In this document: piece after piece, positions 15,015 through 50,760 of the stretch
Layout of the letters: each line of letters opens with the position of its first letter
Numbering within the stretch: position 1 is the stretch's first letter
Source of the DNA: Nitrospinales bacterium
GTDB taxonomy: Bacteria; Nitrospinota; Nitrospinia; Nitrospinales; VA-1
NCBI GenBank assembly: GCA_965262115.1
Contig: OZ253496.1
Coordinates: 256,001-320,000, forward strand
Direction of reading: 5' to 3'
DNA: 64,000 nucleotides
Made by a program: the position numbers and the translations under genes
Notes under the pieces: generated by a model
Databases searched by the model: none
Seen by the model: only the letters and a program-made list of their open reading frames with translations
Told to the model about the DNA's origin: nothing

Positions 15015-15053
15015 TATCCCTCCGGGGCACCATATCCAGGAAGGGGTACCACA
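15015..15053 (+). repeat. 39-bp hairpin unit (free-standing copy)
   Basis: TATCCCTCCGGGGCA-N17-TACCACA, same architecture as the units inside the MITEs. Confidence 0.7.
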
Positions 15054-15167
15054 ACCTCACGCTGAGTGGAAATATTTTGTCTCCATTCACTCCAGCTTTG
15101 CTATACTGCTCAAAGTAAAGCCTCTTATACACGCGTTCAATAATTCCCACCTGAACCGAAACCCTGA

Positions 15168-16733
15168 ATGGAAAGCAATAAAAAAATAAGTAAAGCGGCA
15201 GGCGTTGTAAGCGGGATGACCCTGTTGTCCAGGGTTTTCGGGTTCCTGCGTGACATGGTTATTGCTATGGCATTTGGCTCCTCGGCATCTGCCGACGCTT
15301 TTTTTGTCGCTTTCCGAATCCCCAATATGCAACGCAGAATTTTAGGCGAAGGTGCGGTGACGTCAGCTTTCATTCCTGTTTTCACCGAGACACTGACTCA
15401 AAAAGGTGAATCCGCCGCGTGGAAATTGACCGCTAACTTGTTCAATATTCTTTTTATTATTTTATCCGCAGTATCCCTGTTGATCCTGATATTTTCTCCG
15501 GCCGTGATAACGGTTTTTGCCCCCGGGTTTCTTGACGAACCCGATAAATTTAAAATGACGGTTAATTTGACACGCTGGATGGCCACTTATCTTTTCTTTA
15601 TTGGTCTTGCCGCCTTCTGTATGGGGATTTTAAACACCCTGAAAGTTTTCGCCCTTCCAGCCGCAACCCCCATTTTGCAGAATGTCAGCATGATTATGTC
15701 GGTTCTCATCATTGCTCCATTAATGGATGAGCCGATCATGGGACTGGCCATTGGTGTTGTGGCAGGAGGAGCCCTGCAATTGTTGATTCAGCTTCCCGCC
15801 GTGTTGAAAAAAGGCATGCGATTTGAAAAAACTCTTAACTTCAAGCAGGAAGAAGTCGTCAAAATCGCCCGGCTGATGGGACCTGTTGTATTGGGCCTGG
15901 CTGTTTATGAAGTTAATATCATGATCGATACCCTCATCGCTTCCCTGCTTCCGGGCGGATCGATCTCATACCTTTATTATGGCAACCGACTGGTGCAACT
16001 GCCTCTGGGAATATTTGCGGTAGCCTTAGGGATCGCCCTTCTTCCTATGTTATCGGGTCAGGCCGCAAAGGGTGACCTGAAAGATCTAGTCCAAACCTTG
16101 GGCTTCAGCATTCGCCTCATCCTTTTTGTCACCATACCCGCTACGGTAGGATTGATCATTCTGCGTGAACCCATCATCAATACCTTGTGGGAACGGGGTG
16201 AATTCCTCGCTTCCACCACCGAGGGCACTGCCATTGCCATACTTTATTATTCCATAGGTCTGTGTGCTTATTCAGGAATTAAAATCATCGCGCCGGCTTT
16301 TTATTCCCTTCAAGACACCAAAACTCCGGCTAAAATTGGCATTTATTCCATGATTCTCAATACGGTTTTGAATCTCATTTTAATGGGCCCCTTGCAACAC
16401 GGAGGGCTGGCACTGGCCACTTCCCTGGCGGCTTTATTTAATGTCGCTTTGTTGATCTACTACTTAAGAAAACGCCTGGGCCTGATGGGTGGAAGGAAAA
16501 TACTGCGTTCGACTATTAAAATGTCTGCTGCGGCAATAGTCATGGGTGCCATCACTTTTCTTTGCAGGGAAAGTTTTTTCCATGCCGGGGATCCCCTATC
16601 CATCCGACTGTTTGTCCTGACTGCTTGCATATCTGTCGGAATATTGGTATATGCCTTAATCTCTCACTTGACTAGAAATGAAGAATGGCGTTTTCTTCTG
16701 GATTTGAGAAAGAAAAAACAAATACCCGTTTAA
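15168..16733 (+). CDS. murJ: Lipid II flippase MurJ
   Basis: SRVFGFLRD, DAFFVAFRIPN, GEGA, RLVQLPLGIF, GLALATSL. Confidence 0.97.
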   Translation: MESNKKISKAAGVVSGMTLLSRVFGFLRDMVIAMAFGSSASADAFFVAFRIPNMQRRILGEGAVTSAFIPVFTETLTQKGESAAWKLTANLFNILFIILSAVSLLILIFSPAVITVFAPGFLDEPDKFKMTVNLTRWMATYLFFIGLAAFCMGILNTLKVFALPAATPILQNVSMIMSVLIIAPLMDEPIMGLAIGVVAGGALQLLIQLPAVLKKGMRFEKTLNFKQEEVVKIARLMGPVVLGLAVYEVNIMIDTLIASLLPGGSISYLYYGNRLVQLPLGIFAVALGIALLPMLSGQAAKGDLKDLVQTLGFSIRLILFVTIPATVGLIILREPIINTLWERGEFLASTTEGTAIAILYYSIGLCAYSGIKIIAPAFYSLQDTKTPAKIGIYSMILNTVLNLILMGPLQHGGLALATSLAALFNVALLIYYLRKRLGLMGGRKILRSTIKMSAAAIVMGAITFLCRESFFHAGDPLSIRLFVLTACISVGILVYALISHLTRNEEWRFLLDLRKKKQIPV

Positions 16734-16771
16734 CCCGCTTTTGCAAACACAAGATAAAGGATAACCCTCTT

Positions 16772-17386
16772 ATGATCGTCACCTGCCTGGATTTGGAAGG
16801 AGTTCTGGTTCCTGAAATCTGGATCGCCTTCGCTGAGAAAACTGGCATTGAGAAGTTGCGTCTCACCACGCGGGATATCCCCGATTACAATGACCTGATG
16901 CGGGGGCGACTCAAAATTCTTGATGAAAACAATCTTAAACTTTCTGATATCGAATACGTCATCGGAGGTATTGCCCCTCTTCCAGGGGCGAAGGAATTCT
17001 TATCCTGGCTGGAAAGCGAATTCCAGGTCATCATCCTCTCTGACACCTTTAACCAGTTCGCTGGGCCTTTGATGGCACAGCTTGACTACCCCACCCTGTT
17101 TTGCCATGACCTGATTGTTGATGAAGCCGGACGAATTGCCGATTACCGTTTGCGGATTTCCGATGCAAAAACCAAGGCAGTGGTGGCATTGAAAGGGATC
17201 AATCTGAAAGTCATAGCCGCCGGAGATTCTTACAACGATATTGGAATGCTGAAAGAAGCAGATGCTGGGATTTTGTTCAGGGCTCCTGATAACATTGTGG
17301 AAGAATTTCCCCAGTTTCCGGTGACCCAAACTTATGAAGAATTTAAAACAGCGATCCTTGAAGCCAGTAACAAACTGGGCGACTGA
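16772..17386 (+). CDS. thrH: Phosphoserine phosphatase/homoserine phosphotransferase
   Basis: CLDLEGVLVPEIW, TTRDIPDY, ILSDTF, AAGDSYND. Confidence 0.95.
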   Translation: MIVTCLDLEGVLVPEIWIAFAEKTGIEKLRLTTRDIPDYNDLMRGRLKILDENNLKLSDIEYVIGGIAPLPGAKEFLSWLESEFQVIILSDTFNQFAGPLMAQLDYPTLFCHDLIVDEAGRIADYRLRISDAKTKAVVALKGINLKVIAAGDSYNDIGMLKEADAGILFRAPDNIVEEFPQFPVTQTYEEFKTAILEASNKLGD

Positions 17387-17391
17387 AAAGA

Positions 17392-17910
17392 TTATTTAAT
17401 TTCAGAATCAAGAAGTTTGTTACCCACCCATCCGGTCCGAACCTGTTCTCCATGCCTCGGTTTTGAACGAATTTTTGACCACTTGCCTTTTTTCTCCAGG
17501 ACTTCAACCTGAGTGCCTTGAGTCAGCACAAAAAGAACTTTGCCCTTCTTTGTGCTGGGTTTGTCACGCAAATTGGCAAAGCTCACTTTAACCTTAAAAA
17601 ATAATTCAAAATCTTCGTCTTCAGCAACCTTAAGGGGAACTTCGGCAGTGACCGTTTTCTGAAAAAGGTTTTGCAGATTGATGTCCAGCTTGAATACAGC
17701 GATCACAATGAAAATCAGGGTTAGCAGAGCAATACGCGAAGAAGCTTGGGAAACATTCAAGCCTTTTTCGGGGTCGGGTTCAGGAGGTACAGGAGGATCG
17801 CATTGGACGCAATAAAAGCCCGGAGCAGGCAGAAGGGTTCCGCAAGTATCACAGTATTGATATTTGCGCTTCATATTAGGATAAGTGGTCTTGCTTGTAA
17901 TCGGGTTCAT
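17392..17910 (-). CDS. Membrane protein with zinc ribbon and bacterial SH3 domain
   Basis: CxxC...CxxC, TM helix, ANLRDKPST...GKWSKI...TGWV. Confidence 0.8.
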   Translation of the reverse strand: MNPITSKTTYPNMKRKYQYCDTCGTLLPAPGFYCVQCDPPVPPEPDPEKGLNVSQASSRIALLTLIFIVIAVFKLDINLQNLFQKTVTAEVPLKVAEDEDFELFFKVKVSFANLRDKPSTKKGKVLFVLTQGTQVEVLEKKGKWSKIRSKPRHGEQVRTGWVGNKLLDSEIK

Positions 17911-17920
17911 CCCCCGCCTT

Positions 17921-19438
17921 TTAATTGAGCCGATAAATTTGACGGTATTTATTTTTCAAATAATCGAGAAAACTTTCCGGATTCAAATTTTCCCCAGTGA
18001 CCTTCTTAACCAGATCAGGAACCGATAGCAACCTTCCTTGTTGATGAATCTGAATACCCAGCCAATCCCGCACCGAAGCCAGGTTTCCCGCTTCGACATG
18101 TTTTTCAATATCAGGCTGGGCTTGGATCAAAGCTTGATAAAACTGGCTGGCATAAATTGCCCCTAATGTATAGGAAGGGAAATAACCAAAGGCTCCCCCA
18201 CTCCAATGCGTGTCCTGCAAAACTCCAAGTGTGTCCGTTGGCGGTTCCACGCCCAAATATTCTTTCATTTTAACATTCCATATCTCCGGCAAATCCTCAA
18301 CCTGAACCGATCCGTCAAATAAACCTTTTTCCAGTTCATAGCGCAGGATGACATGCAGTGGATAGGTCACCTCGTCGGCTTCCACCCTTATTAGCGAAGG
18401 TTGGCTGACATTAACCCCCTCATAAAATTTTTCGGAAGTCACGTCTTTGAAATTTTGTGGGAATGTTTCGGCAAGCAGTGGCAGGTAGCGAGTGCAAAAG
18501 GGTCTTCCCTGCGCGATCATGCGTTCCCAGAACAGTGACTGCGATTCATGAATAGCCATGGTGAGTGCTTCGGATACAGGCAGATCACGCCCATTCTGCA
18601 TGCGCCCCTGTTCATAAAGTCCGTGACCGGTCTCATGAATGACCGCATATAATGATTCGACAAAATTATCTATTCGGTAGCGAGTAGTAATGCGGACGTC
18701 TGTCGGATGACTGCCCCCGCAAAAAGGATGCACCGAAACATCCATCCGGCCTTTGTCAAACTGGAACCCCATCTCTTCGCTGATCTTGCGGCCTAACGCT
18801 TCCTGTTTTTCAATGGGGAACCGGCCTGATAAAAAACCCGTATCGGGCTGGTAGTCGGACTCTTGAATGGATTTTATCAGTGGAATCAGTTCCGCTTTAA
18901 GCCTGTCGAAAACGGGGGTGATGTCCTTCTGAGTAGTGCCTCTTTCATAAATATCAATATTGGCGTCATAGGCTTCCATATCGGGGAAAACATGGCCAGC
19001 CCACTTTATTTTCAAATCCACCAGGCGTTTTAAAACCGGGGCAAAATCGGAAAACTTGTTTTCAGCACGGGCTTTCACCCAGATCTGATGAGCTCGGGAG
19101 GACAGTTCCGCCAACTCTGTGACCAGTGCTTTGGGAATCCGTGTAGCCATGTCGAAATCCCGGCGGGCCTCGCGGATATTGCACCATTCAAAAGCAGTGA
19201 ATCCATTTTCATCGGCATGGGGGAGACGATCGAGCAACTTTCCCATTTCAGAGTGAATGGTTTTTTCGTGAAGAACCCCGGCCAAAGCTCCGATCTGCTG
19301 GGCTCGGGATTCTGAGGCTCCTGCAGGCATGATAACCTCCTGATCCCAATGCAGGATGCCCATGATCCCGCCTAAGCGGTTGTTCTCCTCCAACAGGTGA
19401 ACCAGTGAAAAATAATCTTCTCTTAGACCTTCGTTCAT
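17921..19438 (-). CDS. Carboxypeptidase M32
   Basis: HPF, DVRITTR, HETGH, HESQS, IRVEADE, GYFPSYTLG. Confidence 0.96.
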   Translation of the reverse strand: MNEGLREDYFSLVHLLEENNRLGGIMGILHWDQEVIMPAGASESRAQQIGALAGVLHEKTIHSEMGKLLDRLPHADENGFTAFEWCNIREARRDFDMATRIPKALVTELAELSSRAHQIWVKARAENKFSDFAPVLKRLVDLKIKWAGHVFPDMEAYDANIDIYERGTTQKDITPVFDRLKAELIPLIKSIQESDYQPDTGFLSGRFPIEKQEALGRKISEEMGFQFDKGRMDVSVHPFCGGSHPTDVRITTRYRIDNFVESLYAVIHETGHGLYEQGRMQNGRDLPVSEALTMAIHESQSLFWERMIAQGRPFCTRYLPLLAETFPQNFKDVTSEKFYEGVNVSQPSLIRVEADEVTYPLHVILRYELEKGLFDGSVQVEDLPEIWNVKMKEYLGVEPPTDTLGVLQDTHWSGGAFGYFPSYTLGAIYASQFYQALIQAQPDIEKHVEAGNLASVRDWLGIQIHQQGRLLSVPDLVKKVTGENLNPESFLDYLKNKYRQIYRLN

Positions 19439-19505
19439 GCCGTAATACGCCTCCAGGAAAGAACAGATCGGTATATAAAATCAGTTAATAGCATAGAGCT
19501 ACCAG

Positions 19506-19973
19506 TTATTGTTGACTTTGGTCACGGACAATACGGATGTTCCCCGAATCCATGATCAGGACTCGTTCTCCGGCTTTAAGCTCCTCATCATTAACTTGCA
19601 CAACGGCGTACGGTTCTCCCTTATCCGGCTGGATGATAAATTCCGATGCGGTGCCACTGGTAATCAGGTCTTCGGTGGCATGGCCCAATAATCCACCTAC
19701 AACAGCCCCGCCTACCGCGCCCAGCGCACGGGTCGCCGTGCTTCCTCCCAGAGTGGAACCGGCAAGCCCACCCGCGGTGGCCCCTACTACAGCCCCAGCT
19801 CCTGACTCTGTCCCCTTTATCTCAACATCTCTAATGGAAAGAATGACTCCTTGTTTAAAATATTGAGGCGAACCCATTTCACCACGCTCATAGGTAGATC
19901 CGGAATGCATGGAACACCCGGAAATTCCCAGGAGAAGGGTCATCAAAAGAAAAACCGTGAAATTTTTATACAT
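19506..19973 (-). CDS. SlyB-like outer-membrane lipoprotein (glycine zipper)
   Basis: Lipobox ISGC; GAVVGATAGGLAGSTLGG glycine zipper. Confidence 0.88.
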   Translation of the reverse strand: MYKNFTVFLLMTLLLGISGCSMHSGSTYERGEMGSPQYFKQGVILSIRDVEIKGTESGAGAVVGATAGGLAGSTLGGSTATRALGAVGGAVVGGLLGHATEDLITSGTASEFIIQPDKGEPYAVVQVNDEELKAGERVLIMDSGNIRIVRDQSQQ

Positions 19974-20113
19974 GGCGCACTCCATAAAAGGTTCTCTGAT
20001 ATACTTCATGAAATTCCAACAAGCGTATCATCGACAAAAGACAATAAATGCGTTGACGCTGGTGGGATTTATTAATTTCCTGCTTATTAATAGTATCAAA
20101 TCCTGAGGTATAT

Positions 20114-20358
20114 ATGGAACCCGATAACGAAACTCCCGAAACGGTCCAGGCCCGACTAGATGTTTTACGCAAAGGCATTGTCAGTGAAGAAAACTCCGTC
20201 AATTATTACCAGACCCTTATAGATAAAACCCCTGAAGATTCGGACGCTAATATTGGGATGCGGAGGATGTATCAGGCCTGATGCTGGAAGAAAAAAAGCA
20301 TGTGGAACGTTTCCGCGAGCTTATTCGGGAATGGGAGCAAAAACTTAAAGAGTTCTAG
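20114..20358 (+). pseudogene. Half-ferritin/rubrerythrin-like protein, frameshifted
   Basis: GAGG RBS; MEPDN...SEENSVNYY...MRRMYQ / LMLEEKKHVERF...KEF*. ExxxxxxY and EExxH motifs are split by a 1-nt deletion near 20276. Confidence 0.7.
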
Positions 20359-20503
20359 ATATCGCCTCATATTCTAGCTGGATTGGTAAACGCCCCCTCA
20401 AACCGCTTTCAGTTTACTCAATTCAGACCGTAATTGGTATCCTCGCCATTTTCAAGTCCAAATATCCAAACTGGTTTTGTGATTAAAAATCTCTTTCATA
20501 TCC

Positions 20504-20552
20504 TTGACAATATAAAGGGCTTATTTTATTATTGATAACAATTCTCATTATT
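20504..20552 (+). promoter_or_regulatory. Sigma70 promoter with adjacent Fur box
   Basis: TTGACA-17-TATTAT, then GATAACAATTCTCATTATT (20534-20552), 14/19 match to the Fur consensus GATAATGATAATCATTATC. Confidence 0.8.
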
Positions 20553-20563
20553 ATTTTAGGGGA

Positions 20564-22774
20564 TTGAATACTCAGCAGCAACTCATAAATATCAACAATT
20601 TTAATGGTTTACCCATCATGCTATCCGCCAAAGTCGAAATGATGCAAAAATCTGACTTTTTTAAAATCATCCTGATATTTGTTTTGTTTTTAAGTCAGAG
20701 TATTTGGATTCCAACCAATGCCCAAGCAACCAATCAGGCGACGATAGATAGAACTAAAAAAATTGTCATGATGCTAAACATCGCTGCAAAGGAATTTGAG
20801 GAAGGTGTGGTGGATGGGAAAATTGTTGTTCCGCCGGAATATGAAGAAAGCCAGGTGTTTTTGCAACAGGCCATGGAACGTTTTGAAAGAATCTCTTCTG
20901 AAATCACAGATCCACAAAAAGCAGAGAACCTTAAAAAACGGCTCATCAACATGATGGCTATGGTCAAGGATAAAGTGGATTCACAAATAATGTGGAAGGA
21001 AGTCAATAGTATAAATTCAGAGTTACTGGCAACTTTCAATATCGAAATCAAAAAAACACCGATCACCCCCGTATCTCTGGGGAACGGTAAAAAAATATTT
21101 GAAAATAACTGCTCGGTTTGTCATGGCCTCAAGGGTCATGGGGATGGCCCGATGGCTAGCCAGTTTGATCCCTCCCCTGCCGTTTTATCCAACCCAAAAC
21201 TGACAGGAGACGAAAACACCACCGCTTACGACAATTTCGAGGTGATTAATGTCGGAATTGCTAACACTGGGATGATGGCTTGGGCTGGAGTGCTTTCGGA
21301 AACCGAAATTTGGAATGTCACTTATTACCTCAGGACTTTTTCCAACAACAATGTGCAACTGCCACCGGTAAATTTGCAAGTGGCTGCAATGGAGTCATCT
21401 GGAGATTCCACAAGTAGCATGGCCGAACAGGTTGTTAACGAGGTTCGTGAGCTTCTCGAAAAGAGTTTAGCAATTTATGGGTCCGGTCAGGTGGACAATG
21501 CGGCAGAAATGGCTTTTGACGCGTATCTTGCGTATGAAAAAATTGAGTCCAACCTTATTACCAAGGACAGGAGTTTGGGTGTGAGACTGGAGTCGGCCTT
21601 CAGTCGCTACCGTGGTGAGATTAAGCGTAGTGCGCCATTTGGGCATGTAGAGTCCCTTAACAAGGAAATCAATCTGGACCTGGCAAAAGGTCTGGAACTG
21701 CTCAAAAGTGAGGTCGGTTTTACGGGAATGTTCTTTCAGTCATTCTCCATCATCGTTCGGGAAGGATTTGAGGCCATTCTCATCATCGCCGCGCTGATCG
21801 CGTTTTTAACGAAATCCCGCAATCAGGGGCGGATAAAAACCATCCATATTGGCGTTGTGATCGGTATTCTTGCCAGTTTTGCAACAGCCTATGTCATCCA
21901 TGAAATCCTTCACCTGAACATGGCCAACCAGGAACTTCTCGAAGGCTGGATCATGTTAGTTGCCGTTGCGGTCTTGTTCTGGGTCAGCTATTGGTTGGTT
22001 TCAAAAATTGAAACCAGGAAGTGGCAGGAATACATCAACAAAAAAATGCGTGGCGCCCTTTCAAAGGGAAACACTTTTACCCTGGGTGCGGTGGCTTTTA
22101 TATCTGTTTACCGGGAAGGATTCGAAACCGTTCTTTTTTACAAGGCGCTTTATTTGTATGCTGAAGGTGCGACCGCAGGAATCATTCCCGGGTTTCTCGC
22201 TGGTTGTGTAGTTTTAGCAGGAGTCTTCTATTTGATCAATACTTTGGGTATGAGAATTCCCATTAAATGGTTTTTTGGTTTTACCAGTGTTCTTTTGTAT
22301 TACATGGCATTCACCTTCATGGGAAAAGGACTTCACGAGTTGCAAATGGGCGAACAGGTTCCCATGACTGCCGCAAATTTTCTGCCCAGCATTTCCTGGC
22401 TCGGCATGTATCCAACTTGGGAAACATTCATAGGGCAGGCAGCGTTATTGGGGGCTTTTGTCTTCGCGCTGATTTACACTTTTATTATTAAAGCTGAATT
22501 GGGTGCTACCCAATTAAAAGAAGAAACCTCTCAACTGCAAAATGACATCACCCAGGTACACGATCTGGTGGAACATATTTCTCATCATGCCAAGCGTTGT
22601 GAAGTATTCCTAAAGGACACTCCGGATCAGGATTTGCAGGAGCTCTCAGGCCATTTGAAGGAGATTGATATCAAAATCCACGAACTGTTCGGGCATGTGA
22701 AATATGTGGAGAACCAGCTTCAGGATGAATATGAGAAGCTGGCTAAGCAGGCCTTCCAATCCAAACAAAATTAG
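20564..22774 (+). CDS. Cytochrome c-FTR1 iron permease (EfeU/PbrT-like) with C-terminal His-rich domain; start may be ATG ~20618 or 20639
   Basis: CSVCH heme motif, REGFEA and REGFET motifs, multi-TM FTR1 domain. Confidence 0.93.
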
Positions 22775-22782
22775 GCGATCTC

Positions 22783-24075: not shown

Positions 24076-24317
24076 TGGAAGATCTGACGACTGATCGTGT
24101 GATTGAACTCACAGAAACCACCGATGAGCTTTCAACCGAGAGTCAGGAAATCCATGACATGATAGAACACATCACCGAACACATTGAAAAATGTCGACTG
24201 GTTTATATGGATCAGGAGAAAAATGAAATCGAGGAAATTGGCCGGCACCTCAACACTCTGGACAAAAAAATGCACCGGCTGATGCAACACCTGGGGGAAT
24301 TGGAAAAGACCGATTAA
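24075..24317 (+). CDS. His-rich helical domain (paralog of the FTR1 C-tail; possibly the frameshifted C-terminus of the upstream gene)
   Basis: Gapless alignment to the FTR1 tail. Adding one A to the A6 run at 24067-24072 fuses it in frame to the upstream gene. Confidence 0.75.
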   Translation: MEDLTTDRVIELTETTDELSTESQEIHDMIEHITEHIEKCRLVYMDQEKNEIEEIGRHLNTLDKKMHRLMQHLGELEKTD

Positions 24318-24580
24318 TGAATATATCGCTTTTCCTTGCCTGAAGAGTGTGGAGCGAGGTTCTGATCACGGTTGATCATATTCATCTTTTTATATTCTTC
24401 CCAATTGTCTCGAAACAGGTTGAAACCAACATAATCCAGCGCTTGCATGATTTCGAGTTCAGAAACCTTGCCTTCGCCGCCATCCACTTCACGAATCACA
24501 TCTTCCAACTGTTCGCAAAGACCGGCAAACCGCTCTTCATCTTCAAACATCATAAAGTCTTTCATGAAATCAAAGGTCAT
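24314..24580 (-). CDS. Hypothetical protein
   Basis: 88-aa acidic ORF with GGGAG upstream. Confidence 0.65.
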   Translation of the reverse strand: MTFDFMKDFMMFEDEERFAGLCEQLEDVIREVDGGEGKVSELEIMQALDYVGFNLFRDNWEEYKKMNMINRDQNLAPHSSGKEKRYIH

Positions 24581-28989: not shown

Positions 28990-29468
28990 TCTGTCGGAGC
29001 CCACCATGAATTTATTAATGGAAAAGGATATCCTCCAGGTCTGAAGGAGACCTTTGCATAAGTCGAAAAATCGAAGAATCGAGATGCTTCGAGATACCCC
29101 TGCGGGGCAAGAATTCAAAGGTCAAATATCACTAGCTCAGCATAACAATAAAGAGCTATTTTGTCATTCTGAAGAGCGTACGCGATGAAGAATCTCGGGT
29201 TATGCAAAGGTCTCGGCCTGAAGGGGGACGAAATTTCTTTTGAGGGAAGATTGATGGCTGTCACTGATATTGCTGAAGCCCTGACCGCATCTGATAGACC
29301 TTATAAAAAAGCCATGCCTTTGGAAACGGTCTATCGAATTCTCAGATCCATGGCCGAAAAAAAGAAGAACCGGACCCCAATCTGGTTGACTTGTTCATCG
29401 AAAAAGAAGTTTACAAAATTTACCAGAAAAAACACGAAAACGGTTCGAAAGAAAAACAACCATTTTAA
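28990..29468 (+). pseudogene. HD-GYP c-di-GMP phosphodiesterase remnant interrupted by a MITE
   Basis: VGAHHEFINGKGYPPGLK [MITE] GLKGDEISFEGRLMAVTDIAEALTASDRPYKKAM... / DPNLVDLF. The 5' part is missing and there is a second frameshift near 29360. Confidence 0.88.
29047..29214 (+). mobile_element. MITE copy 1 (168 bp)
   Basis: Perfect 15-bp TIR GAGACCTTTGCATAA/TTATGCAAAGGTCTC; 9-bp TSD GGTCTGAAG/GGCCTGAAG. Confidence 0.95.
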
Positions 29469-40099: not shown

Positions 40100-40198
40100 C
40101 CACTAGCCGTGGGGGCAAATAGCAATGGCTCGTTGAGCCGAGATAACTCTTTGCCAGCCCAAAAAAGTTGTTGCACTTTGTCACCGGCGGCCCGCCGG
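40100..40198 (+). repeat. Mosaic intergenic repeat (CCAC-N5-GTGG + ~60-bp element + GC hairpin)
   Basis: GCAAATAGCAATGGCTCGTTGAGCCGAGATAACTCTTTGCCAGCC... Confidence 0.85.
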
Positions 40199-41088: not shown

Positions 41089-41175
41089 CCCACTCGGCGT
41101 GGGGCCAGTGAGAACCGGCGAGCCGCCGGTGGCAGATAGCCATGGCTCATTTGGCTAGCAAAGAGTTATCTCGTG
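41089..41175 (-). repeat. Mosaic intergenic repeat copy
   Basis: CCCACTCGGCGTGGGGCCAG, GC hairpin, and reverse complement of CGAGATAACTCTTTGCTAGCC. Confidence 0.85.
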
Positions 41176-41281: not shown

Positions 41282-42160
41282 CTAGTGGCGCGGGTGGAAC
41301 CGGTTGTGGACTTCGAGCATTCTTTTTTCCAGAACATGAGTGTAGATTTGTGTGGTTGAGATATCGGCATGCCCTAGCATCTGCTGGACCGATCTCAAAT
41401 CGGCTCCCCTATCCAATAAATGCGTGGCGAAAGCGTGTCTCAAGGTATGCGGCGACACATTGGCTTTGATACCGCATTGACGCACATATCCTTTTAACAG
41501 CTTCCAGAATCCTTGCCGGGTCATGGCTTTGACTCTTCGGGTCAGGAACAATTCTTCCACCTTTTGCCTCTTGGCCAGAACAGGCCGGGAGTTTAACAAA
41601 TAGTCCTCCAATACATTTCTCGCAACCATGCCTATGGGGACAATGCGCTCTTTCGATCCTTTCCCCATAGTTCTCAGGCAACCAGCTACCAGATCGAGGT
41701 TATGCCCCTTCACCGATATCAGTTCAGAGACCCGCATTCCGGTTGCATACAAAACCTCCAGCATGGCCTGATCTCTGAGACCAATGGTGGTGTCCATATC
41801 CGGACAACTCAAAAGTTTGTCGACATCGGCCAGCGATAGTATATGAGGAAGCTTTCTCCACCGCCGAGGGGTTTCCAGAATCTCGGCCGGATTATCATTG
41901 AGTTGTTTGTCTTGACACAGATAGCGAAAAAAGGATTTGATCGAAGACAGACTTCGCGCAATGGAAGACGGCGACAAGCCCTCATCACGCAATATCAGAA
42001 GAGAACTACGAATATCCGCCGTTGTCAGGCCTGCCACTTCCTTGTCAGGAAAAGCCCGAGCAAAACGCCGCAGATCACGGCAATACCCTGCCACTGTGTG
42101 CGGCGAATGTCTTTTCTCAATGCGCAAATATTCGGAAAACTCTTGAATTAATGCATCCAT
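41282..42160 (-). CDS. xerD: Tyrosine recombinase XerD
   Basis: LYATGMRVSEL, TRQGFW, SPHTLRHAFATHLL, LGHADISTTQIYTHV. Confidence 0.93.
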   Translation of the reverse strand: MDALIQEFSEYLRIEKRHSPHTVAGYCRDLRRFARAFPDKEVAGLTTADIRSSLLILRDEGLSPSSIARSLSSIKSFFRYLCQDKQLNDNPAEILETPRRWRKLPHILSLADVDKLLSCPDMDTTIGLRDQAMLEVLYATGMRVSELISVKGHNLDLVAGCLRTMGKGSKERIVPIGMVARNVLEDYLLNSRPVLAKRQKVEELFLTRRVKAMTRQGFWKLLKGYVRQCGIKANVSPHTLRHAFATHLLDRGADLRSVQQMLGHADISTTQIYTHVLEKRMLEVHNRFHPRH

Positions 42161-42443
42161 AATAAAATTATGGTATAAAATTCAATAAGTTACAATTATT
42201 ATTTTTCTTATTAGGTTTATTCTGCTCAATCTGTTAAGCTTGATAGTCGAATCATAGAAGATGAATGGTTAACACAATGAAATTAGCCCATTACTGGTTT
42301 TTACCCTTCCATAAGCTTCGGATCGCCTGACCTCTCCCTCGTGGCAGGTCGCTGTTCCACTGTCCGCTTATTTTTTAGACCGAGTCATCGCCGTTTTTCG
42401 CATTTATTCATTCACAATTAAACTTTAAAAACTACAGACAACT

Positions 42444-44282
42444 ATGTTGAATCAGGAATTTATCAGAAATATTGGAATCATTGCTCATGTTGACCATGGG
42501 AAAACCACCTTGGTCGATTGTCTTCTTAAGCAGAGTGGAATGTTCCGGGACAGTGAGCTCTCGGAGACGTGCATCATGGACAGCAACGAACTGGAGAAAG
42601 AGCGCGGAATCACTATATTCTCAAAAAATGCGGCGATAAATTACAAAGGGTACAAGATCAATATTGTCGACACACCCGGGCATGCTGATTTTGGCGGCGA
42701 GGTGGAACGGATTTTAAAAATGGTCAACGGGGTTCTGCTTCTGGCCGATGCTGTCGAAGGCCCCATGCCGCAGACCCGGTTTGTTTTGAAAAAATCCCTC
42801 GAACTGGGACTCAAGCCCATTGTCGTTATCAACAAAATCGACCGCCCTGCGGCGCGGACGAAAAAGGTCGTCGATGAAGTTTTTGATTTGTTCGTTGAAC
42901 TGAATGCAAATGATGAACAACTGGACTTTCCTGTCATATACACATCAGCCAAGCAGGGTATTTCCAGGCAAACACCCACGGGCCCAAACGATGACATCAC
43001 CCCTCTTTTGGATATGGTCATCGAAAAAGTCCCAGCCTATAGAGGTGATGCCAAAGGACCTTTCCAAATGCTGGTTTCCTCCATGGATTATGATGACTAC
43101 GTTGGAAGGATCGCTATCGGCACAATCACACGTGGACATATACAGGCAAAAAGCAACTATACCCAGATCAATCGTCAAGGAGATATGAAAACCTTTAGTC
43201 TTTCCAAGCTATACACTTTCCAAGGATTGACGAAGGTAGAGTCTCCCTCAGCGACCACAGGAGATATTATCGGCATTGCTGGAATGAAGGAAGTGGAAAT
43301 CGGCGAAACCATTGCGGACTCCAGTTGCCCGGAACCACTCCCAGTTATTGAGATTGACGAACCTACTCTATCGATACATTTTTCTTCCAACACCTCACCC
43401 TTTGCAGGTCGTGAAGGCGACCTTGTCACCTCAAGGCAGGTGCGAGATCGTTTATTCAGGGAAATCCGCTCCAACGTTTCTCTCCGAGTGGAGGAAACCG
43501 ACACGCAGGATACCTTCAAGGTTTCCGGACGCGGGGAATTGCATTTAACTATATTAATAGAAACCATGCGCCGTGAGGGCTTTGAGTTTTCCATTTACCG
43601 CCCGGAGGTCTTGATCAAAGATATTGGCGGAACTCCACACGAGCCGGAAGAGTTTGTCATTCTCGATATTGACGACTCTCATATGGGCTCTGTTATGGAA
43701 GCCATGGGAAAACGCAAAGGCACCCTGAAGAATATGATCCAAGGAGAAACCACGGCGAGGCTTGAATTCGTCATTCCCACACGCGGACTTTTCGGATTTC
43801 GTTCTGAATTTCTAACGTTGACCAAAGGCACGGGAATCATTAACCGCACTTTCCATAATTTCATTCCGCATTGCGGTGAGATCGCCCAGCGCACCAATGG
43901 TGCTTTAATTGCCATGGAAAATGGAAAAACGACCGGTTTCTCCCTGTTTAATTTGCAGGAAAGAGGCTCTATGTTTCTCGGGCCGGGTGAAGAAATTTAT
44001 ACTGGACAGCTTGTCGGTGTGAACAAAAAAGATAATGACCTGGTGGTTAATATCTGCAAGGAAAAAAAGCTGAGCAATATGCGCGCATCCGGGTCCGATG
44101 TGAATATCATTCTCACACCGCCAGTAATAATGAGTCTCGAACAGATTCTTGGTTTTCTAAACGAAGACGAGTTGGCAGAGGTCACCCCGAAAAGCATACG
44201 CTTGCGGAAAAAAATCCTGAACGAAAACGACAGGAAAAGATTTGGTAGAGCGCGGAACACCATTCCTGTTTTCGTGTCCTGA
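42444..44282 (+). CDS. typA: Translational GTPase TypA/BipA
   Basis: [35 protein letters not shown]. Confidence 0.98.
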
Positions 44283-44466
44283 TTGTTCCATTTTCATTGC
44301 CCTGATATTTGAAATGTTGTAGAATCAACAACCTTTCATAAATCAGGGGAAGAGAATTGTTTTTGAAAAACATTATTTCGTTTTTCAAACCCCTAAGACT
44401 TTTTCGACAAACAAGCCCACCTTAAAATATAAGCCGGATCAAAATATATCCGGGAATGGGATTCAC

Positions 44467-45495
44467 ATGCAGCGCACAACCCTCGTTCAACACATTCGAC
44501 AACAGGAAAAAGCCAATCCCGGAGCTACTGGAGAGTTCACCAGCCTGATGAATGAAATCATGGTGGCTGGCAAGATCATTTCTCTTGAAGTCAACAGCGC
44601 AGGTATAGGAGAAGATATTTTTGGGCTTACCGGAAAAATAAATGTCCAGGGGGAAGAAGTCAAAAAGCTGGATGAGTTTTCTGACCTCACATTCACTAAA
44701 ATTATCGGTCAGTCAGGCACGGTATGTGCCATCACCTCCGAAGAAAGAGAAGAAGCTCTGATCATCGAGGACAATCCCGGAAAATATATTTTCATGATGG
44801 ATCCTCTCGATGGATCTTCAAACATTGATGTTAATGTCAGCATAGGAACGATATTTTCTATTTACCGCAAGAAAAGCCTGGGCGATAAAGTAACAGACGA
44901 GGATCTCCTGCAAAAAGGAGGCGAACAAATTGCCGCCGGTTATATCGTATATGGTTCCAGCACAATTTTTGTCTACACAACCGGGCAAGGTGTTCATGGG
45001 TTTACGCTTGATCCGGCGCTGGGTGAATTTTTTCTCTCCCATCCTGACTTGGTCATCCCTGAGCAGGGTTCTACCTACAGCACCAACGAAGGCAACTGGG
45101 GTAATTGGGATGAACCCCAAAAGGATCTGGTCGCTTATTTAAAGGAAGACGCTCCGGCAACAGGGCGCCCCTATAAATTGCGTTATATCGGCTCTCTCGT
45201 CGCGGATTTCCACCGGACTTTGTTAAAAGGCGGGCTCTTCATGTACCCCAAAGACACGAAAAGCCCTAATGGAAAATTGAGATTTTCTTTTGAGGCTGCT
45301 CCTCTGGCTTTCATTGTTGAGCAGGCCGGAGGAAAGGCCTCTACCGGAAACCAACGGATTCTGGATATTATCCCCAGCGGCATTCATGACCGTTTGCCTC
45401 TCTTCATCGGTAGCAAGAAAGATGTCGAACTGGCGGAAGAACGGCTCGCGGCCACAGTGAAAAAGGGCGGTTGGTTCAAATGGCTGAGCGGATGA
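44467..45495 (+). CDS. fbp: Fructose-1,6-bisphosphatase class I
   Basis: DPLDGSSN, RYIGSLVADFHR, GKLR..FEAAP. Confidence 0.97.
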   Translation: MQRTTLVQHIRQQEKANPGATGEFTSLMNEIMVAGKIISLEVNSAGIGEDIFGLTGKINVQGEEVKKLDEFSDLTFTKIIGQSGTVCAITSEEREEALIIEDNPGKYIFMMDPLDGSSNIDVNVSIGTIFSIYRKKSLGDKVTDEDLLQKGGEQIAAGYIVYGSSTIFVYTTGQGVHGFTLDPALGEFFLSHPDLVIPEQGSTYSTNEGNWGNWDEPQKDLVAYLKEDAPATGRPYKLRYIGSLVADFHRTLLKGGLFMYPKDTKSPNGKLRFSFEAAPLAFIVEQAGGKASTGNQRILDIIPSGIHDRLPLFIGSKKDVELAEERLAATVKKGGWFKWLSG

Positions 45496-45514
45496 CCATC
45501 GGCCTATAACTATT

Positions 45515-46780
45515 ATGAAAATTCAAAGCATACGCGGTGTTAAAGACATCCTGCCCGATGAAATCTGGAAATGGCAGTACATCGAGTCCATCGCCCATAA
45601 TATTTTTCCACGATACGGCTTCAAGGAAATCCGCCTCCCCATTTTTGAAAACACCCGGCTGTTTTCCCGCAGTATTGGCGAAACTACCGATATCGTCGAA
45701 AAGGAAATGTATACCTTTCAAGACCGGGGCGGCGACTCCATTACACTTCGGCCCGAGGGAACTGCATCGGTGGTTCGTGCCTATGTGGAGCACAAGATGT
45801 ATAATCCCCCTTCGGTGCTCAAGATGTTTTATATCGGCCCCATGTTTCGCTATGAGAGACCGCAGGCCGGTCGGTTGAGGCAATTCAATCAAATTGGAGT
45901 CGAGGCCATGGGCTCAGCCAGTCCGGTTGTGGATGTAGAAGTGATGACCATGCTCATGGAATTTTTCAAAGCACTGGGACTCACCGACATCAAACTTGAG
46001 ATCAACAGCCTGGGCAGTCAGGAATGCCGCCCTCAATACCGCGAGCTCTTAAAAACAGAAATAGAAAAACATCTGGACCAGCTTTGTTCCAACTGCAAAA
46101 ACCGATACCAGCGCAATCCTTTGCGGGTCCTCGATTGCAAGACGGAGCAATGCGGTAAGATTGCGGAAGGACTGCCAAAACTTATCGACCACCTGGACCC
46201 CGCCAGCGCCGAACATTTCTCGGAAGTGCGTTCACTTCTGGACTCTGCCGGAAGCTCCTACTCCGTCAACCCTAACCTGGTTCGAGGATTGGATTATTAC
46301 AACCGTACCGCGTTTGAAGTCACCTCACAAAATCTGGGCGCCCAAAATGCCATTTGCGGAGGCGGACGTTACGACACTCTGGTGGAAGAACTGGATGGCC
46401 CCTCGACACCCTGTTTCGGTTTTGCCCTTGGTCTCGAACGCCTGGTTTCCCTGCTACCGTTTGATGATGCAAAAACGCTAAAGAAAAATCCTGATATTTT
46501 TATCGTCTGCATGGGAGAGGAAGCCAAAACCACGGGGTTTAAAATTGCGCACGAACTACGCTTGAAGGGATTCAGGGTCGAGAGAGATTATGAAATGGGG
46601 AGCATGAAAAGCCAAATGCGTAAGGCCAACAAAGCCCAGTGCCGGTTGACCCTTATTCTGGGAGAAAACGAAATCCGTTCCGGTAAATTTGTATTGAAAA
46701 ATATGAAAACCGGCGAGCAAATAGAATGTCCTGTCGAGGAACTGGCCACAGAAATCGCCAAACTCTCCACCGATTCGTAA
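45515..46780 (+). CDS. hisS: Histidine--tRNA ligase
   Basis: LRPEGTA, FRYERPQAGR, LVRGLDYY, GGGRYD. Confidence 0.98.
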   Translation: MKIQSIRGVKDILPDEIWKWQYIESIAHNIFPRYGFKEIRLPIFENTRLFSRSIGETTDIVEKEMYTFQDRGGDSITLRPEGTASVVRAYVEHKMYNPPSVLKMFYIGPMFRYERPQAGRLRQFNQIGVEAMGSASPVVDVEVMTMLMEFFKALGLTDIKLEINSLGSQECRPQYRELLKTEIEKHLDQLCSNCKNRYQRNPLRVLDCKTEQCGKIAEGLPKLIDHLDPASAEHFSEVRSLLDSAGSSYSVNPNLVRGLDYYNRTAFEVTSQNLGAQNAICGGGRYDTLVEELDGPSTPCFGFALGLERLVSLLPFDDAKTLKKNPDIFIVCMGEEAKTTGFKIAHELRLKGFRVERDYEMGSMKSQMRKANKAQCRLTLILGENEIRSGKFVLKNMKTGEQIECPVEELATEIAKLSTDS

Positions 46781-46910
46781 TTATTTTTGTTGGACAAAAC
46801 TTTTCCCGAAATTTAGCATCCTAACTTCAGGAGCCGGGAAAGCCTGAATGATTGACCCCTCTTAATGACCGTGCTAGGTTAACCCGATATAATCGCTACT
46901 TAAAAAAATT

Positions 46911-47339
46911 ATGGCTAGCAAAGAGTTAGAAGTTCTTGAGGATTATATTGTTCAAAACAAGCTGAAGATCACTAAGCAACGGCGTGCTGTTCTCAATGCT
47001 TTTATGGAAAGCGAAAAGCATGTCAGCGCTGAGGAACTCTACAATCAGGTCACCGTCACCGACCCAAAAGTGGGGCTGGCAACGGTGTATCGCACTCTAG
47101 CGTTGCTAACCCAAAGCGGCCTGGCCTCGGAGCTGGATTTTGGCGACGGACAAAAACGCTATGAACATAAATACATGCATGGTCATCACGACCACATGAT
47201 CTGCACCGAGTGTGGAAAAATCATCGAGTTCAACCATCCCCTCATCGAAAAGTTCCAGGAAGAAGTCGCCAGCCGAAACGGGTTCAACATCACTTCCCAC
47301 AAATTGGATATGTTTGGCCTGTGTAACGAATGCCGCTAA
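46911..47339 (+). CDS. fur: Fur family transcriptional regulator
   Basis: TKQR, HVSAEE, ATVYRTL, HHDHMICTECG, CNEC. Confidence 0.93.
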   Translation: MASKELEVLEDYIVQNKLKITKQRRAVLNAFMESEKHVSAEELYNQVTVTDPKVGLATVYRTLALLTQSGLASELDFGDGQKRYEHKYMHGHHDHMICTECGKIIEFNHPLIEKFQEEVASRNGFNITSHKLDMFGLCNECR

Positions 47340-47427
47340 CCCCCACTCGGCGTGGGGCCAGCACTGCATTGCCCGTGGAGCGAACTGAGTATTCAAACGC
47401 AATACTATAATGACTCCCCCTGACAAG

Positions 47428-47634
47428 GAGACCTTTGCGTAAGTCTATAAAGCAGAAAAGCGAGATGCTTCGAGATACCCCTACGGGGCAAGAATTCAAA
47501 GGTCAAATATCACTAGCTCAGCATGACAATAAAAGGCTATTTTGTCATTCTGAGGAGCTATTGCAACGAAGACGTGATACTTTTCCCTAACCTTCGTGCC
47601 CCGGAGGGGTAATCTTGGGTTATGCAAAGCTCTC
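47428..47634 (+). mobile_element. MITE copy 2 (207 bp; extra inverted 39-bp unit)
   Basis: TIR GAGACCTTTGCGTAA/TTATGCAAAGCTCTC; perfect TSD CCTGACAAG. Confidence 0.95.
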
Positions 47635-47664
47635 CCTGACAAGGGGGATAAAGAGGATTTACAT

Positions 47665-47780
47665 ATCAGCAGTTTTTTTGACGAGCAAAGAGTATCTTGG
47701 CTCAATCAAGCCCTTGCCAACTGGCAGCATGTTATGATCCCTCATCAGTCTTTATGCACCGAAGGGGTACGCCTAGTGGG
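47665..47780 (-). repeat. Mosaic repeat copy with inserted 40-bp hairpin unit (47730-47769)
   Basis: Reverse complement reads CCCACTAGGCG[TACCCCTTCGGTGCA-N18-CATAACA]TGCTGCCAG...TTGAGCCAAGATACTCTTTGCT. Confidence 0.75.
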
Positions 47781-48669
47781 GAAGGGACTGGGCGCAACGA
47801 AATCCGATATAGTTAAAGATTTCGTTCATGACCTGGCCATAGGTGGTCACTTTTGGGAAAACTTTATTTTTGGGATGTAGCCAGACCCGGTTGGTGATGC
47901 GTAATGCGCCGGCTGAAGAGTCGAAGGAACCACCTCGTACCACTTTCGATTCACCCGCTTCCGGACCTTGAGGGTTGTCTTTCGAGCGGACTTTATAATA
48001 AGGCTCATACCAGTCGTTGACCCACTCCCAGACATTCCCCATCATGTCATAAAGACCGTACTGGCTTGGGGCTTTACTCCCAACAGGGTGTGTGGTCTCT
48101 GCTGAGTTATCTTCAAACCAGGTGTAATCTCCATGCACCATATTGCCCCAGAAGTAGCGGGTTGTCGCCCCTCCCCGAGCCGCATATTCCCATTCCGCTT
48201 CGCTGGGCAAGCGGCAGGCACCCTGTGATTTCTTGATAAACTTCTGCACATCCAGAAAATTGACCTGTTCAACGGGCAAGTCTGCTCCCATGAACTTGGA
48301 GGGATTATATCCTCTCAGCTTTTCCCAACGCGCCTGGGTCACTTCATATCTATCCAGATAAAAATCATCGACGCATACCTCATGCTCCGGCTTTTCATCT
48401 TCCTGGGTATAATCATTGCCCATGATAAAACACCCACCCTTTATGAACACCATTCCTTCAGGAGCTTTGTCGGCTTTTGACTGATCTTCGGGAGAAAACT
48501 GAACCGGTGCAACCCGCTGATCAGAGAGAGGAGTAGATTCTTCCGACACCTCTGGCAGTTCGGAAAAGCTGGGATGAATCTCGTCACTACCTTGGTCCTG
48601 GGCATTATCAGCGCAAGCCGAAAGTAGGAAAAAAACGCTGAGGATGATGAATGTTCTATAAAAACGCAT
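47773..48669 (-). CDS. Formylglycine-generating enzyme family (SUMF1/FGE-sulfatase domain) lipoprotein
   Basis: Lipobox LSAC; YEVT, RLPSEAEWEYAARG, GLYDMMGNVWEW, IGFRCA. Confidence 0.92.
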   Translation of the reverse strand: MRFYRTFIILSVFFLLSACADNAQDQGSDEIHPSFSELPEVSEESTPLSDQRVAPVQFSPEDQSKADKAPEGMVFIKGGCFIMGNDYTQEDEKPEHEVCVDDFYLDRYEVTQARWEKLRGYNPSKFMGADLPVEQVNFLDVQKFIKKSQGACRLPSEAEWEYAARGGATTRYFWGNMVHGDYTWFEDNSAETTHPVGSKAPSQYGLYDMMGNVWEWVNDWYEPYYKVRSKDNPQGPEAGESKVVRGGSFDSSAGALRITNRVWLHPKNKVFPKVTTYGQVMNEIFNYIGFRCAQSLPH

Positions 48670-48884
48670 TGTTTTAACAGGAGTTGGGGAAAGGCGAATA
48701 ATACCATTTTAATGAGGTTTTACAAAAAAATTTCTGCATTTTAAGAACTTACTGCGGTTTTTCTTGAAATAATCCTGAAATGGGTTAAAAAATGGCCCCA
48801 CATCCACGTATTTTCCAATAGATAGTTCAAATTTTTTGTCCAAATACCGATAAATAATAGAACTACTTATCATGGAGCTGGACT

Positions 48885-50760
48885 TTGCGATTCCTAAAAC
48901 CACTCAGCATTTTTGTCTCTTGCCTATTACTGGGAACAGGTTGCAGTACCCTGGAAAAAACCTATCAAAAAACGCGCCAGACAATGGCGAACCTTTTTAA
49001 CGCCGCCGAGGACACCTATCGTCCTGCCTTGGGACTGGACAGGGATATTGACTTGCAATTCGCCAAGCACCAGTTCAATCGCAGAGAATATTCCATTGCG
49101 GAATTTTATTTAAAAAAGACATTGGCCAATCAGCCGGAAAACCGGGAAGCCATCCACCTTCTGCCTTGGGCTTATTTTTTCCAAAAACGTTTTGACAAAG
49201 CATTGGCGTCTTTCAAGCAGGCACACACACTGCACAGAAAAGACCCAACCGCCTTATTGGGTATGGGCTGGTCTTATTTCAGCTTGAAGCAATATCAGAA
49301 GGCTTTGGATAGTTTTGAGCGCGCCGAACGGTTTGCCTCCCACTCCTACGAAATCCACAAAGGCAAGGCCTTCATTCATCTGGAACAGCGGCGAGGCCAG
49401 CTTGCACGAGAAGAACTGGAAAAAATTCTTCCACTCGCCAAGGAGACCTTTGCGTAAGTCTATAAAGCAGAAAAGCGAGATGCTTCGAGATACCCCTACG
49501 GGGCATGAAGTTTAATGAAGAGGATATCACATACCCCTACGGGGCAAGAATTCAAAGGTCAAATATCACTAGCTCAGCATGACAATAAAAGGCTATTTTG
49601 TCATTCTGAGGAGCTATTGCAACGAAGAATCTTGGGTTATGCAAAGCTCTCCTCGCCAAGGTGAATGAATTGCTGGAACAGTGGGAAGCTTCAAACCGTA
49701 ATGACTTCATCGTTCGTTGGGCGATCGTTCCTTCCAACCCTGATTCCAGTTCGATATTTACCTTACCGGTTGAGTTTCCCCGATATCGCAGCCTTCTCCT
49801 TGGAATGCCCACAGAAGACATAGAAGCTCTGGACTCAGCATGGGAAAGCTATTATCAGGGCAAGTACGCTAAAGCGTCCAACCTGTTTGGTGGACTGGCC
49901 CGGTCAAATTCCCCAAACCTGGATGCGGTGAACGGGTTGGCCTGGAGCCTGATGCATGCAAAACAAATCAATAAATCGGAAAAAACATTCAAGGAAATCC
50001 TGGAACTTTACCCGTATTTCCTGGGGGCCTTCAAAGGCCTGCGGGAAATTGAGGAAATCAAGAAGCGCCAGGCTGTTTATGTACAAAACTATTATGAGTA
50101 TGCGATTGACAAGTTTTTAAAATCCATCGAGCATGAGGATTATGAAATATCTTCTGCCAAAGGACTCGGCCTTTCTCTGTTTGCCATAAAAAATTATTCG
50201 GATGCCATTCCTTATTTGCAAATGGCCTTGAAGAGTGACCCCGAAAACAAAGATATGGCTTATAAACTCGACTGGAGCATTCTGAGAAGTGAGTCTCTGG
50301 GCGTTTCCCAAAAATATTTTGAAGATGTTTTAAAAAATCATCCTCTCCGCGCTTCGCCCTATATGGCTCTCGGTTGGATTCACTACAACTGGAGAAACCC
50401 TGATCTAGGAGTGGAATATTTTCTCAAAGCCATTTCTCTCGATCCGGATTTTGCGCTGACACCGGAGTTTCTAAAATTGTTGAAAAAGGAACGATTTGAA
50501 TGGCAAGTCATAATTCCCTGGGCGGGACCTACTTTCAAAATCAATTGGATGACCAGGCCATGCAAATGTTCAGGCATTCTCTAAAAATCCAACCCAACAA
50601 ATCCGAAGCCCACAAGGGAATGGGTTATGTCTATTTTCGACAGGGCAAACATAATTCAGCACATAAAGGCCTGATGAAGGCCAAACATGCCATCACCGAA
50701 GAACGCCCGAAAGCCAAGCCCCCCCCTCCTTTCGATTTCCTTCGAACAAGTCCGAATTAG
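48885..50760 (+). pseudogene. TPR-repeat lipoprotein interrupted by a MITE and a frameshift
   Basis: Removing the MITE plus one TSD restores ...LPLAK-VNELLEQW in frame. A further frameshift occurs near 50510. TPR motifs (ALLGMGWSY, EAHKGMGYVY). Confidence 0.88.
49443..49651 (+). mobile_element. MITE copy 3 (209 bp; tandem hairpin units)
   Basis: Same TIRs as copy 2; perfect TSD CTCGCCAAG. Confidence 0.95.

Follow-up and report, generated by a model that had tools for sequence, protein, structure and literature searches.

How does a non-coding hairpin of some 40 bases come to sit inside other repeats, and even inside its own copies? The question is raised by a 64,000-nucleotide stretch of a Nitrospinales bacterium genome (assembly GCA_965262115.1, contig OZ253496.1, positions 256,001 to 320,000 of the forward strand; hereafter the window). 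An earlier note, made from the letters of the window alone, had reported seven copies of a 39-41-bp hairpin unit and proposed that it is a very small non-autonomous element moved by an HUH (Y1) enzyme encoded elsewhere. The first part of this proposal stands; the enzyme did not turn up in the genomes where it would most be expected, as discussed below. The movement of repeats shorter than 50 bases has been an open question since such repeats were described in cyanobacteria. What the earlier note overlooked is that insertion often appears not to have been clean, a pattern that points to copying together with flanking bases over cut-and-paste alone. Our preferred reading, to which we assign a probability of roughly 0.45, is that the 39-41-base unit spreads by flank-assisted copy-in rather than by clean cut-and-paste. 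New here are base changes specific to filled sites, homogeneity of tandem neighbours, paired positions within the unit that track its flanks, and a predicted IS110 guide aimed at the unit. Our literature searches, largely of openly accessible papers, found no publication on this unit.

The source genome (G000, in which the window is G000:256001-320000) is a single contig of 2.68 Mb, 93.9% complete. Throughout, the top strand is that of the earlier note, unit positions are counted from the start of the hairpin, and flanking bases are numbered - or + from the junctions. On this strand the consensus reads TACCCSTNCSGGGCA, N, GA, a variable stretch (the core) with a conserved G near its middle, YATCAC and N'. 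A scan of G000 tolerating at most two mismatches in the hairpin found 393 hairpins and 286 full units, compared to 57 and 5 in a simulated genome of the same length (order-4 Markov model), and the genome-wide pattern search proposed in the earlier note thus recovered copies far above chance. The full units are mostly 39 (135), 41 (76) or 40 (61) bp long. Iterative removal of units uncovered nesting, with 283 units followed by 38 at a second level and 1 at a third, or 322 in all.

Empty and filled copies of the same repeat both exist, as had been noticed in the window, and comparing them revealed bases that occur only where a unit is present. Of 28 units in G000 whose loop has been entered by another unit, 21 have a host arm reading SGCTCA, a form found in none of 207 intact hairpins; at other loci the host arm is changed in 15 of 20 cases vs. 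0 of 312. In seven genomes of genus g1, to which the source genome belongs, GG at +3/+4 has become CT after loop insertion in 26 of 32 cases. The changed loop cases in G000 come from at least 10 outer contexts and involve every one of the three host classes defined by bases 16 and 39 as well as at least 6 guest cores; they are therefore not explained by one founder composite. The same change from GG to CT at +3/+4 marks four of five filled copies of an unrelated repeat, the CCACT-type hairpin repeat, including the copy at window position 47730; TGCTGC occurs in filled copies only, and 71 empty copies read TGGGGC. At the insertion site within a 129-bp miniature inverted-repeat transposable element (MITE), the base at -2 is G in 22 filled and none of 23 empty copies, and C in 13 filled and 23 empty copies. 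This filled-only G occurs on several backbones, and the base at -2 tracks the loop base of the inserted unit (A/G in 22/22, C in 11/13), with cores occurring alongside both. Four-gamete patterns indicate recombination among copies. Since filled sites so often carry altered flanking bases, insertion was often not clean, which points to copying of the unit with its flanks.

Similarity among neighbours and among sites is consistent with this reading. The hairpin variant is shared across 40 of 53 tandem junctions (15 of 17 in G000, where shuffling gave a mean of 5.2 and a maximum of 12, and 25 of 36 in other genomes, with a shuffled mean of 9.5), and it is still shared by 34 of 46 tandem neighbours whose cores differ. 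One 41-bp core bears whichever loop its resident neighbour has. Among 480 sites, the information in positions 6 and 16 of the unit overlaps by 19-33% with that in the flanks, compared to 3-14% with that in core segments, and AA at -3/-2 is accompanied by the G6 variant in 54 of 64 sites, across several unrelated repeats. Near-identical units in unlike outer contexts share the interval from -6 to +5 more than expected (0.37/0.45 vs. 0.29/0.36 when shuffled), and this sharing drops at +6. Finally, 51.5% of the 480 sites have a neighbour differing by at most two mismatches from -6 to +5, compared to 28.9% after column shuffling.

The targets themselves were largely as the earlier note had described them. 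There is no target-site duplication: duplications of 3 bases were seen at 1 of 278 sites, of 2 bases at 28 and of 4 bases at none. Units enter hairpin repeats, MITEs and their own copies, with repeated DNA adjoining 225 of 255 outer junctions (88%) vs. 54-56% of random intergenic positions. The claim that no target sequence is shared holds insofar as there is no fixed word, but a weak consensus is present among the 158 clusters into which 555 sites fall: T-rich from -3 to -1, T at +2 in 3%, C or T at +3 in 75% and C at +5 in 65%. Tandem junctions that conceal the true flank are excluded from these profiles. For 60 of 211 targets we found an allele of approximately empty length with matching outer flanks, some of these being other members of the repeat family. 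Units insert at fixed places in other units: after base 9, within the core and at the 5' junction. Four genera have the same loop position. Some variants lie repeatedly at the 5' junction of other units (13/15, 10/11 and 7/7 copies). No fixed position of the insertion point was found within target hairpins.

The anatomy of the unit suggests which strand folds. In the hairpin, the pair 6/10 covaries (C-G 194, G-C 79, T-A 10), positions 2 and 14 form an A-C mismatch on the top strand, hence G-T on the opposite strand, in 296 of 302 units, and the loop is TNC (GNA on the opposite strand) in 289 of 302. The reverse complement of the top strand therefore ends in a stem of six pairs that includes a G-T wobble and is capped by a GNA triloop; this is likely the folded strand. 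GNA loops with a sheared G-A pair are described as having much higher stability in DNA than in RNA (PMC13037366), which favours single-stranded DNA as the folded form. Among 200 perfect-ended units, base 16 can pair with the last base in 189, where 85.7 would be expected; the same holds for 104 of 112 distinct cores, and metagenome copies include every one of the four pair types. This 16/39 pairing suggests that the two ends of the unit meet at the foot of the stem, and it sets the boundary more sharply than the uncertainty of about 1 nt that the earlier note had allowed. Folding programs predicted the stem alone to be stable, the opposite end forming just two pairs. The cores, of 17-19 bases, are one related family with conserved positions rather than foreign spacers.

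Because neighbouring bases are often changed at landing sites, the unit was likely copied in with a few flanking bases, and a route can be sketched. The unit would fold in single-stranded DNA and bring its flanks together as a short mimic of an empty site, from about -6 to +5. This mimic could pair with a similar 11-base site, usually in another member of a hairpin repeat or in another unit, where replication or repair would copy the unit in. Mismatched flanking bases would sometimes be overwritten in the process, and a resident hairpin could be duplicated. Initiation may depend on a trans-acting factor that reads the fold and is not encoded beside units. If flank-guided copying holds, it would offer a compact route to scar-free insertion at short homology. 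A more specific version, in which a 40-base single-stranded fold homes without a transposase, its flanks serve as an 11-base guide, a host or other enzyme does the copying, the landing site is edited and the unit is by now so abundant that an RNA-guided IS110 element has been programmed onto it, strikes us as rather unlikely in its entirety. If true, this micro-homing could explain how very small nested repeats, which many phyla possess, come about. The mechanism is open to direct testing, since copies number in the hundreds, empty sites are available for comparison, the unit varies internally and its flanks are naturally marked: marked flanks should be seen either to move with the unit or to stay behind.

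Several observations weigh against flank-assisted copy-in. In genera g10, g7 and g8 the flank of loop insertions is unchanged in 13 of 14 cases, with one hybrid, and 6 of the 32 loop insertions in g1 also keep an unchanged flank. Two further filled-site changes, A to C at +5 (core site) and T to A at +4 (in genome G013), may each descend from a single founder. Repeat cores shared between sites inflate the nearest-neighbour test, and as much as 41.6% is still reached when only the two halves are shuffled. Obligatory carry-over of the right flank was rejected, because near-identical units with different left flanks share only 40% of +1 to +5, vs. 34% when shuffled. Short-tract gene conversion after clean insertion would also yield tandem homogeneity and four-gamete patterns, and the exact ends in 158 clusters, together with invariant bases in four genera, fit an end-cutting enzyme equally well. 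No intermediate, enzyme or movement was observed.

The main rival, which we hold to be somewhat doubtful yet ahead of the remaining alternatives, is clean, end-directed transposition of a single strand: an enzyme acting in trans would cut both ends of the folded strand, form a circle of 39-41 nt and insert it at degenerate sites similar to the end of the unit itself, and gene conversion among copies would later produce the flank changes and the tandem homogeneity. The two readings are not mutually exclusive. Such an enzyme would account for the strand-specific fold, the end pairing and the missing target duplication, for the resemblance of the target consensus at +2, +3 and +5 to the first five bases of the unit, and for the recurrence of variants at 5' junctions of units and the existence of one-sided hybrid units. 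IS200/IS605 and TnpA-REP systems likewise act on folded single strands (PMC8266576). However, the three best-assembled genomes with many copies (G000, G013 and G007, the last 98% complete) lack the Y1 transposase domain (PF01797) expected of an IS200/IS605 TnpA or a REP-associated RAYT. PF01797 was found in 13 of 61 family genomes, and 16 of 17 Y1 loci in relatives lack the unit hairpin, the other having one about 0.9 kb away; a gene flanked by the hairpin was what the earlier note had proposed to look for. The Y2 transposase of IS91 was not found in G000, G013, G007 or G019, and the single match in G071 has no unit hairpins at its locus. The unit also has no fixed target word and only one stable hairpin. 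In contrast to the guides described for IS200/IS605, the bases that pair its ends are located 3' of the hairpin on the strand in which the cut follows the paired site. A second process would still be needed for the filled-only flank alleles. Should an end-cutting enzyme be at work, it would fall outside the classes examined here. None of these transposase classes tracks the unit, and no gene family recurs beside units among 578 and then 824 neighbouring open reading frames (ORFs). After un-nesting, no gene lay between matching ends of orphan hairpins, as judged by eye, that would represent a longer autonomous version. A scan of G000 ORFs for HUH motifs gave 12 matches, all unconvincing, and tyrosine recombinases in G000 gave four, XerD among them. 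Most assemblies of relatives are incomplete, so these negatives mean that a mover was not found in the genomes searched.

The other explanations seem to us progressively less probable. Few true insertions, followed by passive spread within MITEs, IS3 elements and hairpin repeats and by concerted evolution, would explain why all 17 IS3-like copies and 20 of 41 MITE copies carry units, why as many as 204 of 368 sites are concentrated in the five largest target clusters, and why four-gamete recombination is seen among copies. We nevertheless find this improbable, given the 158 clusters, identical backbones that differ by units alone, one loop position in four genera, three nesting levels, copies in three phage contigs and a fold under constraint. 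Insertion from an RNA template would involve a transcript spanning the unit and its 3' flank, which a reverse transcriptase turns into DNA at a nick so that a few bases of the target are replaced; this would account for changes within +1 to +5 and for the missing duplication. It is made very improbable by the reverse transcriptases of G000, which amount to one broken fragment with internal stops (G000:C1:50216-51029), by a DNA-stable loop motif and by the change at -2; in addition, no Rfam family matched, the one weak snoRNA match (E 0.32) lying inside a gene. Least probable of all is movement by a resident IS110 recombinase or an Ssn-like GIY-YIG nuclease. Both are present in G000, the IS110 is programmed on the hairpin with a CT core, and Ssn nucleases cut single strands near hairpin repeats (PMC11893778). 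However, IS110 was found in only 10 of 70 genomes and unit junctions share no core dinucleotide, and close Ssn-like homologues do not track the unit: they were not found in G031 and G074, with 29-30 copies, and are present in G016 with 7 copies and G024 with 1. The published SRM pattern has 5 matches in G000 and none in the MITEs of the window. Small stand-alone GIY-YIG genes occur at L002:1483-1821, which ends in a hairpin repeat and which we take to resemble Ssn nucleases, and at L001:1471-1788.

The IS110 elements exploit the unit in a different way. G000 has 24 matches to an IS110 recombinase (PF01548; DEDD domain), for example L009 and L010. Of the element ends, 24 of 26 on the left follow the left arm of the hairpin and 26 of 26 on the right continue into the right arm, with insertion at the CT of the hairpin and CT on both sides; 13 of the 26 sites share one IS3-borne location and are not independent. 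The non-coding region upstream of the recombinase has two predicted loops, the first containing words that correspond to the left arm and, in complement, to the right arm, and the second matching the donor end (left donor). The IS110 would thus target the unit through a predicted bridge RNA, and nothing suggests that it moves the unit. A related copy in G013 likewise ends in a unit. The element was found in 10 of 70 family genomes as mentioned, whereas the six genomes of g10 gave no match and neither did G019 and G022, a count that should be read in light of the fact that multi-copy insertion sequences can go missing from metagenome-assembled genomes. The insertion of IS621 into E. coli repetitive extragenic palindromic (REP) sequences is alike in its DEDD recombinase, CT core on both sides and predicted loops for target and donor (PMC11208160). 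The present case differs in that the target is a mobile micro-element in its own right, from another phylum; the bridge RNA here is predicted. A repeat in a MITE, a unit in the repeat, a unit in the unit and an IS110 in the unit form a nested series in which a guide RNA appears tuned to another mobile element. Several IS110 copies in G000 have shortened reading frames.

Overall, the unit works like the small dispersed repeats (SDRs) of cyanobacteria, and partly like PATEs and REPINs, yet it lacks defining features of each. SDR1-8 are given as restricted to Nostocaceae in PMC5861425. Elhai et al. 2008 (Genome Res 18:1484) reportedly described SDRs of 21-27 nt that insert into other short motifs and into themselves, and SDR4-6 are said to share a secondary structure. 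As the closest known kind, they would resemble the unit in being very small, non-coding, structured, high-copy and self-nesting (38 second-level and one third-level unit here), with a mover that is unassigned in both. The unit differs in its 39-41 bp, its occurrence in Nitrospinaceae, the variable core between fixed ends and the lack of a HIP1-type fixed target.

Like the repeats of the REP/REPIN-RAYT system (PMC3116915, PMC8266576, PMC3733652), the unit is an extragenic hairpin in hundreds of copies that folds on one strand with a conserved mismatch, has spread vertically within a lineage and serves as an IS110 target. It differs in having no GTAG/CGTC tag before the stem and no RAYT gene flanked by units. 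It also occurs alone, nested or in direct tandem, and REP-like repeats are its hosts. PATEs, which are gene-less IS200/IS605 derivatives, share the lack of target duplication, an end hairpin, pairing of terminal bases and insertion at their own ends (PMC10055086); the unit has one hairpin, no fixed tetra- or pentanucleotide target and no TnpA in copy-rich genomes, and is much shorter. The 16/39 pairing is real, but its geometry is other than that described for IS200/IS605 (PMC8266576), in which a guide 5' to the palindrome base-pairs with the site of cleavage. Unlike a MITE, the unit has neither terminal inverted repeats nor a target duplication, both of which are present in its 129-bp host. 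It is not an IS110 mini-element either, as it has no shared core dinucleotide and the CT core belongs to the IS110 that enters the hairpin; for IS91, no Y2 transposase with cognate ends was found in the five genomes searched.

A CRISPR- or TIGR-like guide array is also a poor match, as the core has no reproducible complementarity to its targets and no adjacent effector or RNA family. We rejected the core as a programmable guide after scans of single positions reached a maximum z of 3.8, a segment register with z 4.6 was lost after site clustering (maximum 1.8), and a recurring link between +7 and the eleventh base counted from the end (z 5.1, among 1088 tests) fell to z 0.3 in an independent set. 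No base-pairing code or register between core and target survived clustering and replication.

Within the window, all seven reported copies are present at their given positions and strands, with five different cores. The 15-base hairpin is exact in five, with one mismatch each in the copies at 15015 and 47730-47769. The former (15015..15053, +; 39 bp, intergenic, with murJ downstream) is a decayed unit in which hairpin and end motif are both altered, GA does not follow the hairpin and the ends are unpaired. MITE 1 (29047..29214, +; 168 bp, a 129-bp backbone plus one unit) has terminal inverted repeats and a 9-bp target duplication with 1 mismatch; its unit (29095..29133, +; 39 bp, A16-T39 class) lies in the first hairpin and has the filled-only G at -2. 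MITE 2 (47428..47634, +; 207 bp, or 168+39) has a perfect 9-bp duplication and two units of 39 bp, one of the A16-T39 class in the first hairpin (47476..47514, +) and one of the C16-G39 class at the base of the second hairpin (47573..47611, -), a site unoccupied in MITE 1 and MITE 3. MITE 3 (49443..49651, +; 209 bp, or 168+41) lies at the 3' end of a TPR gene, also with a perfect 9-bp duplication, and its site is empty in 14 of 14 relatives in which both flanking genes can be anchored. Its 41-bp unit (49491..49531, +), of a variant with 13 of 15 copies at the 5' junction of other units, adjoins a resident 39-bp unit (49532..49570, +) that is identical to 47476-47514, and the two share the same hairpin variant. 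The earlier reading that the MITEs differ in length by whole units of 39 and 41 bp was correct, the 129-bp backbones of MITE 2 and MITE 3 being identical after unit removal. The remaining unit (47730..47769, -; 40 bp, T16-A39 class) lies in a CCACT-type hairpin with CT, not GG, at +3/+4. Its removal does rebuild a site with 17/20 identity to the empty repeat at 47343..47361 (+), which served as reference, and to a second empty copy at 41090, but such rebuilt sites are not always true empty sites, as two of the three mismatches, like the MITE G at -2, occur in filled copies only. Contigs from 4 public runs agree with parts of the stretch without differences and end at repeats, so that no filled/empty polymorphism can be read from them. 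Among the public runs listed as containing the stretch, none was of RNA.

The host MITE has 41 complete copies, 20 of them with units and 28 with identical 9-bp duplications. This 129-bp family is composed of two hairpin repeats, and its start resembles a DDE element of G013, where a DDE_Tnp_1/DUF772 gene stands behind the same terminal motif (L043:10795-11736). Further intergenic repeat families of the genus lie at window positions 40116-40187, 41150-41173, 50997-51033, 53588-53672 and 57222-57316 and are often mosaic with host repeats of the unit. The XerD gene (window 41282-42160, -) scores above the NCBIfam cut-off.

The unit is largely confined to one family. A relaxed pattern, applied to 120 genomes with a reversed-pattern control that gave 0 matches in all 120, was found in 38 of 69 family genomes vs. 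1 of 50 other genomes of the phylum, with positives in 20 of 22 genomes of the source genus, 6 of 6 in g10 and 8 of 17 in g8. Genomes bearing the pattern are nearly all Nitrospina, Nitrospinaceae or Nitrospinota. Genuine units were identified in three phage contigs (L011:3001-3039, L012:3001-3040, L013:3001-3038, L284:7841-7879); 5 of 9 viral matches and 2 others, in a cyanobacterium and an alphaproteobacterium, were chance-like and were excluded from later counts. In G000, which is about 82% coding, 18 of 322 units overlap called ORFs of at least 150 aa, mostly near doubtful starts, and no bias of replication strand or transcription was seen (99 same and 92 opposite in tandem-gene context). 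In phage contig L011 the unit supplies both the last part of one ORF and the first part of the following one. Five good units in G101, of another family, and one in L080, a contig labelled Marinimicrobia, with a Nitrospinaceae-type flank, represent transfer or mis-binning.

Some arrangements in G000 deserve mention. At G000:C1:814839-815074, five tandem units, four of them identical, are nested within the core of a sixth. An element that presumably belongs to the IS3 family carries a unit at one position in all 17 copies (G000:C1:695324-696172 and 16 other places), and 10 of these also hold an IS110 inside their unit. DUF559 nuclease genes are flanked by CCCCT...AGGGG-type hairpin repeats at nine places in G000:C1, for example L294 and L296, and these repeats resemble one host repeat of the unit. 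Simple and short tandem words are also abundant in G000 (284 hits for CA repeats and 79-109 for two other 14-mers) and are unrelated to the unit.

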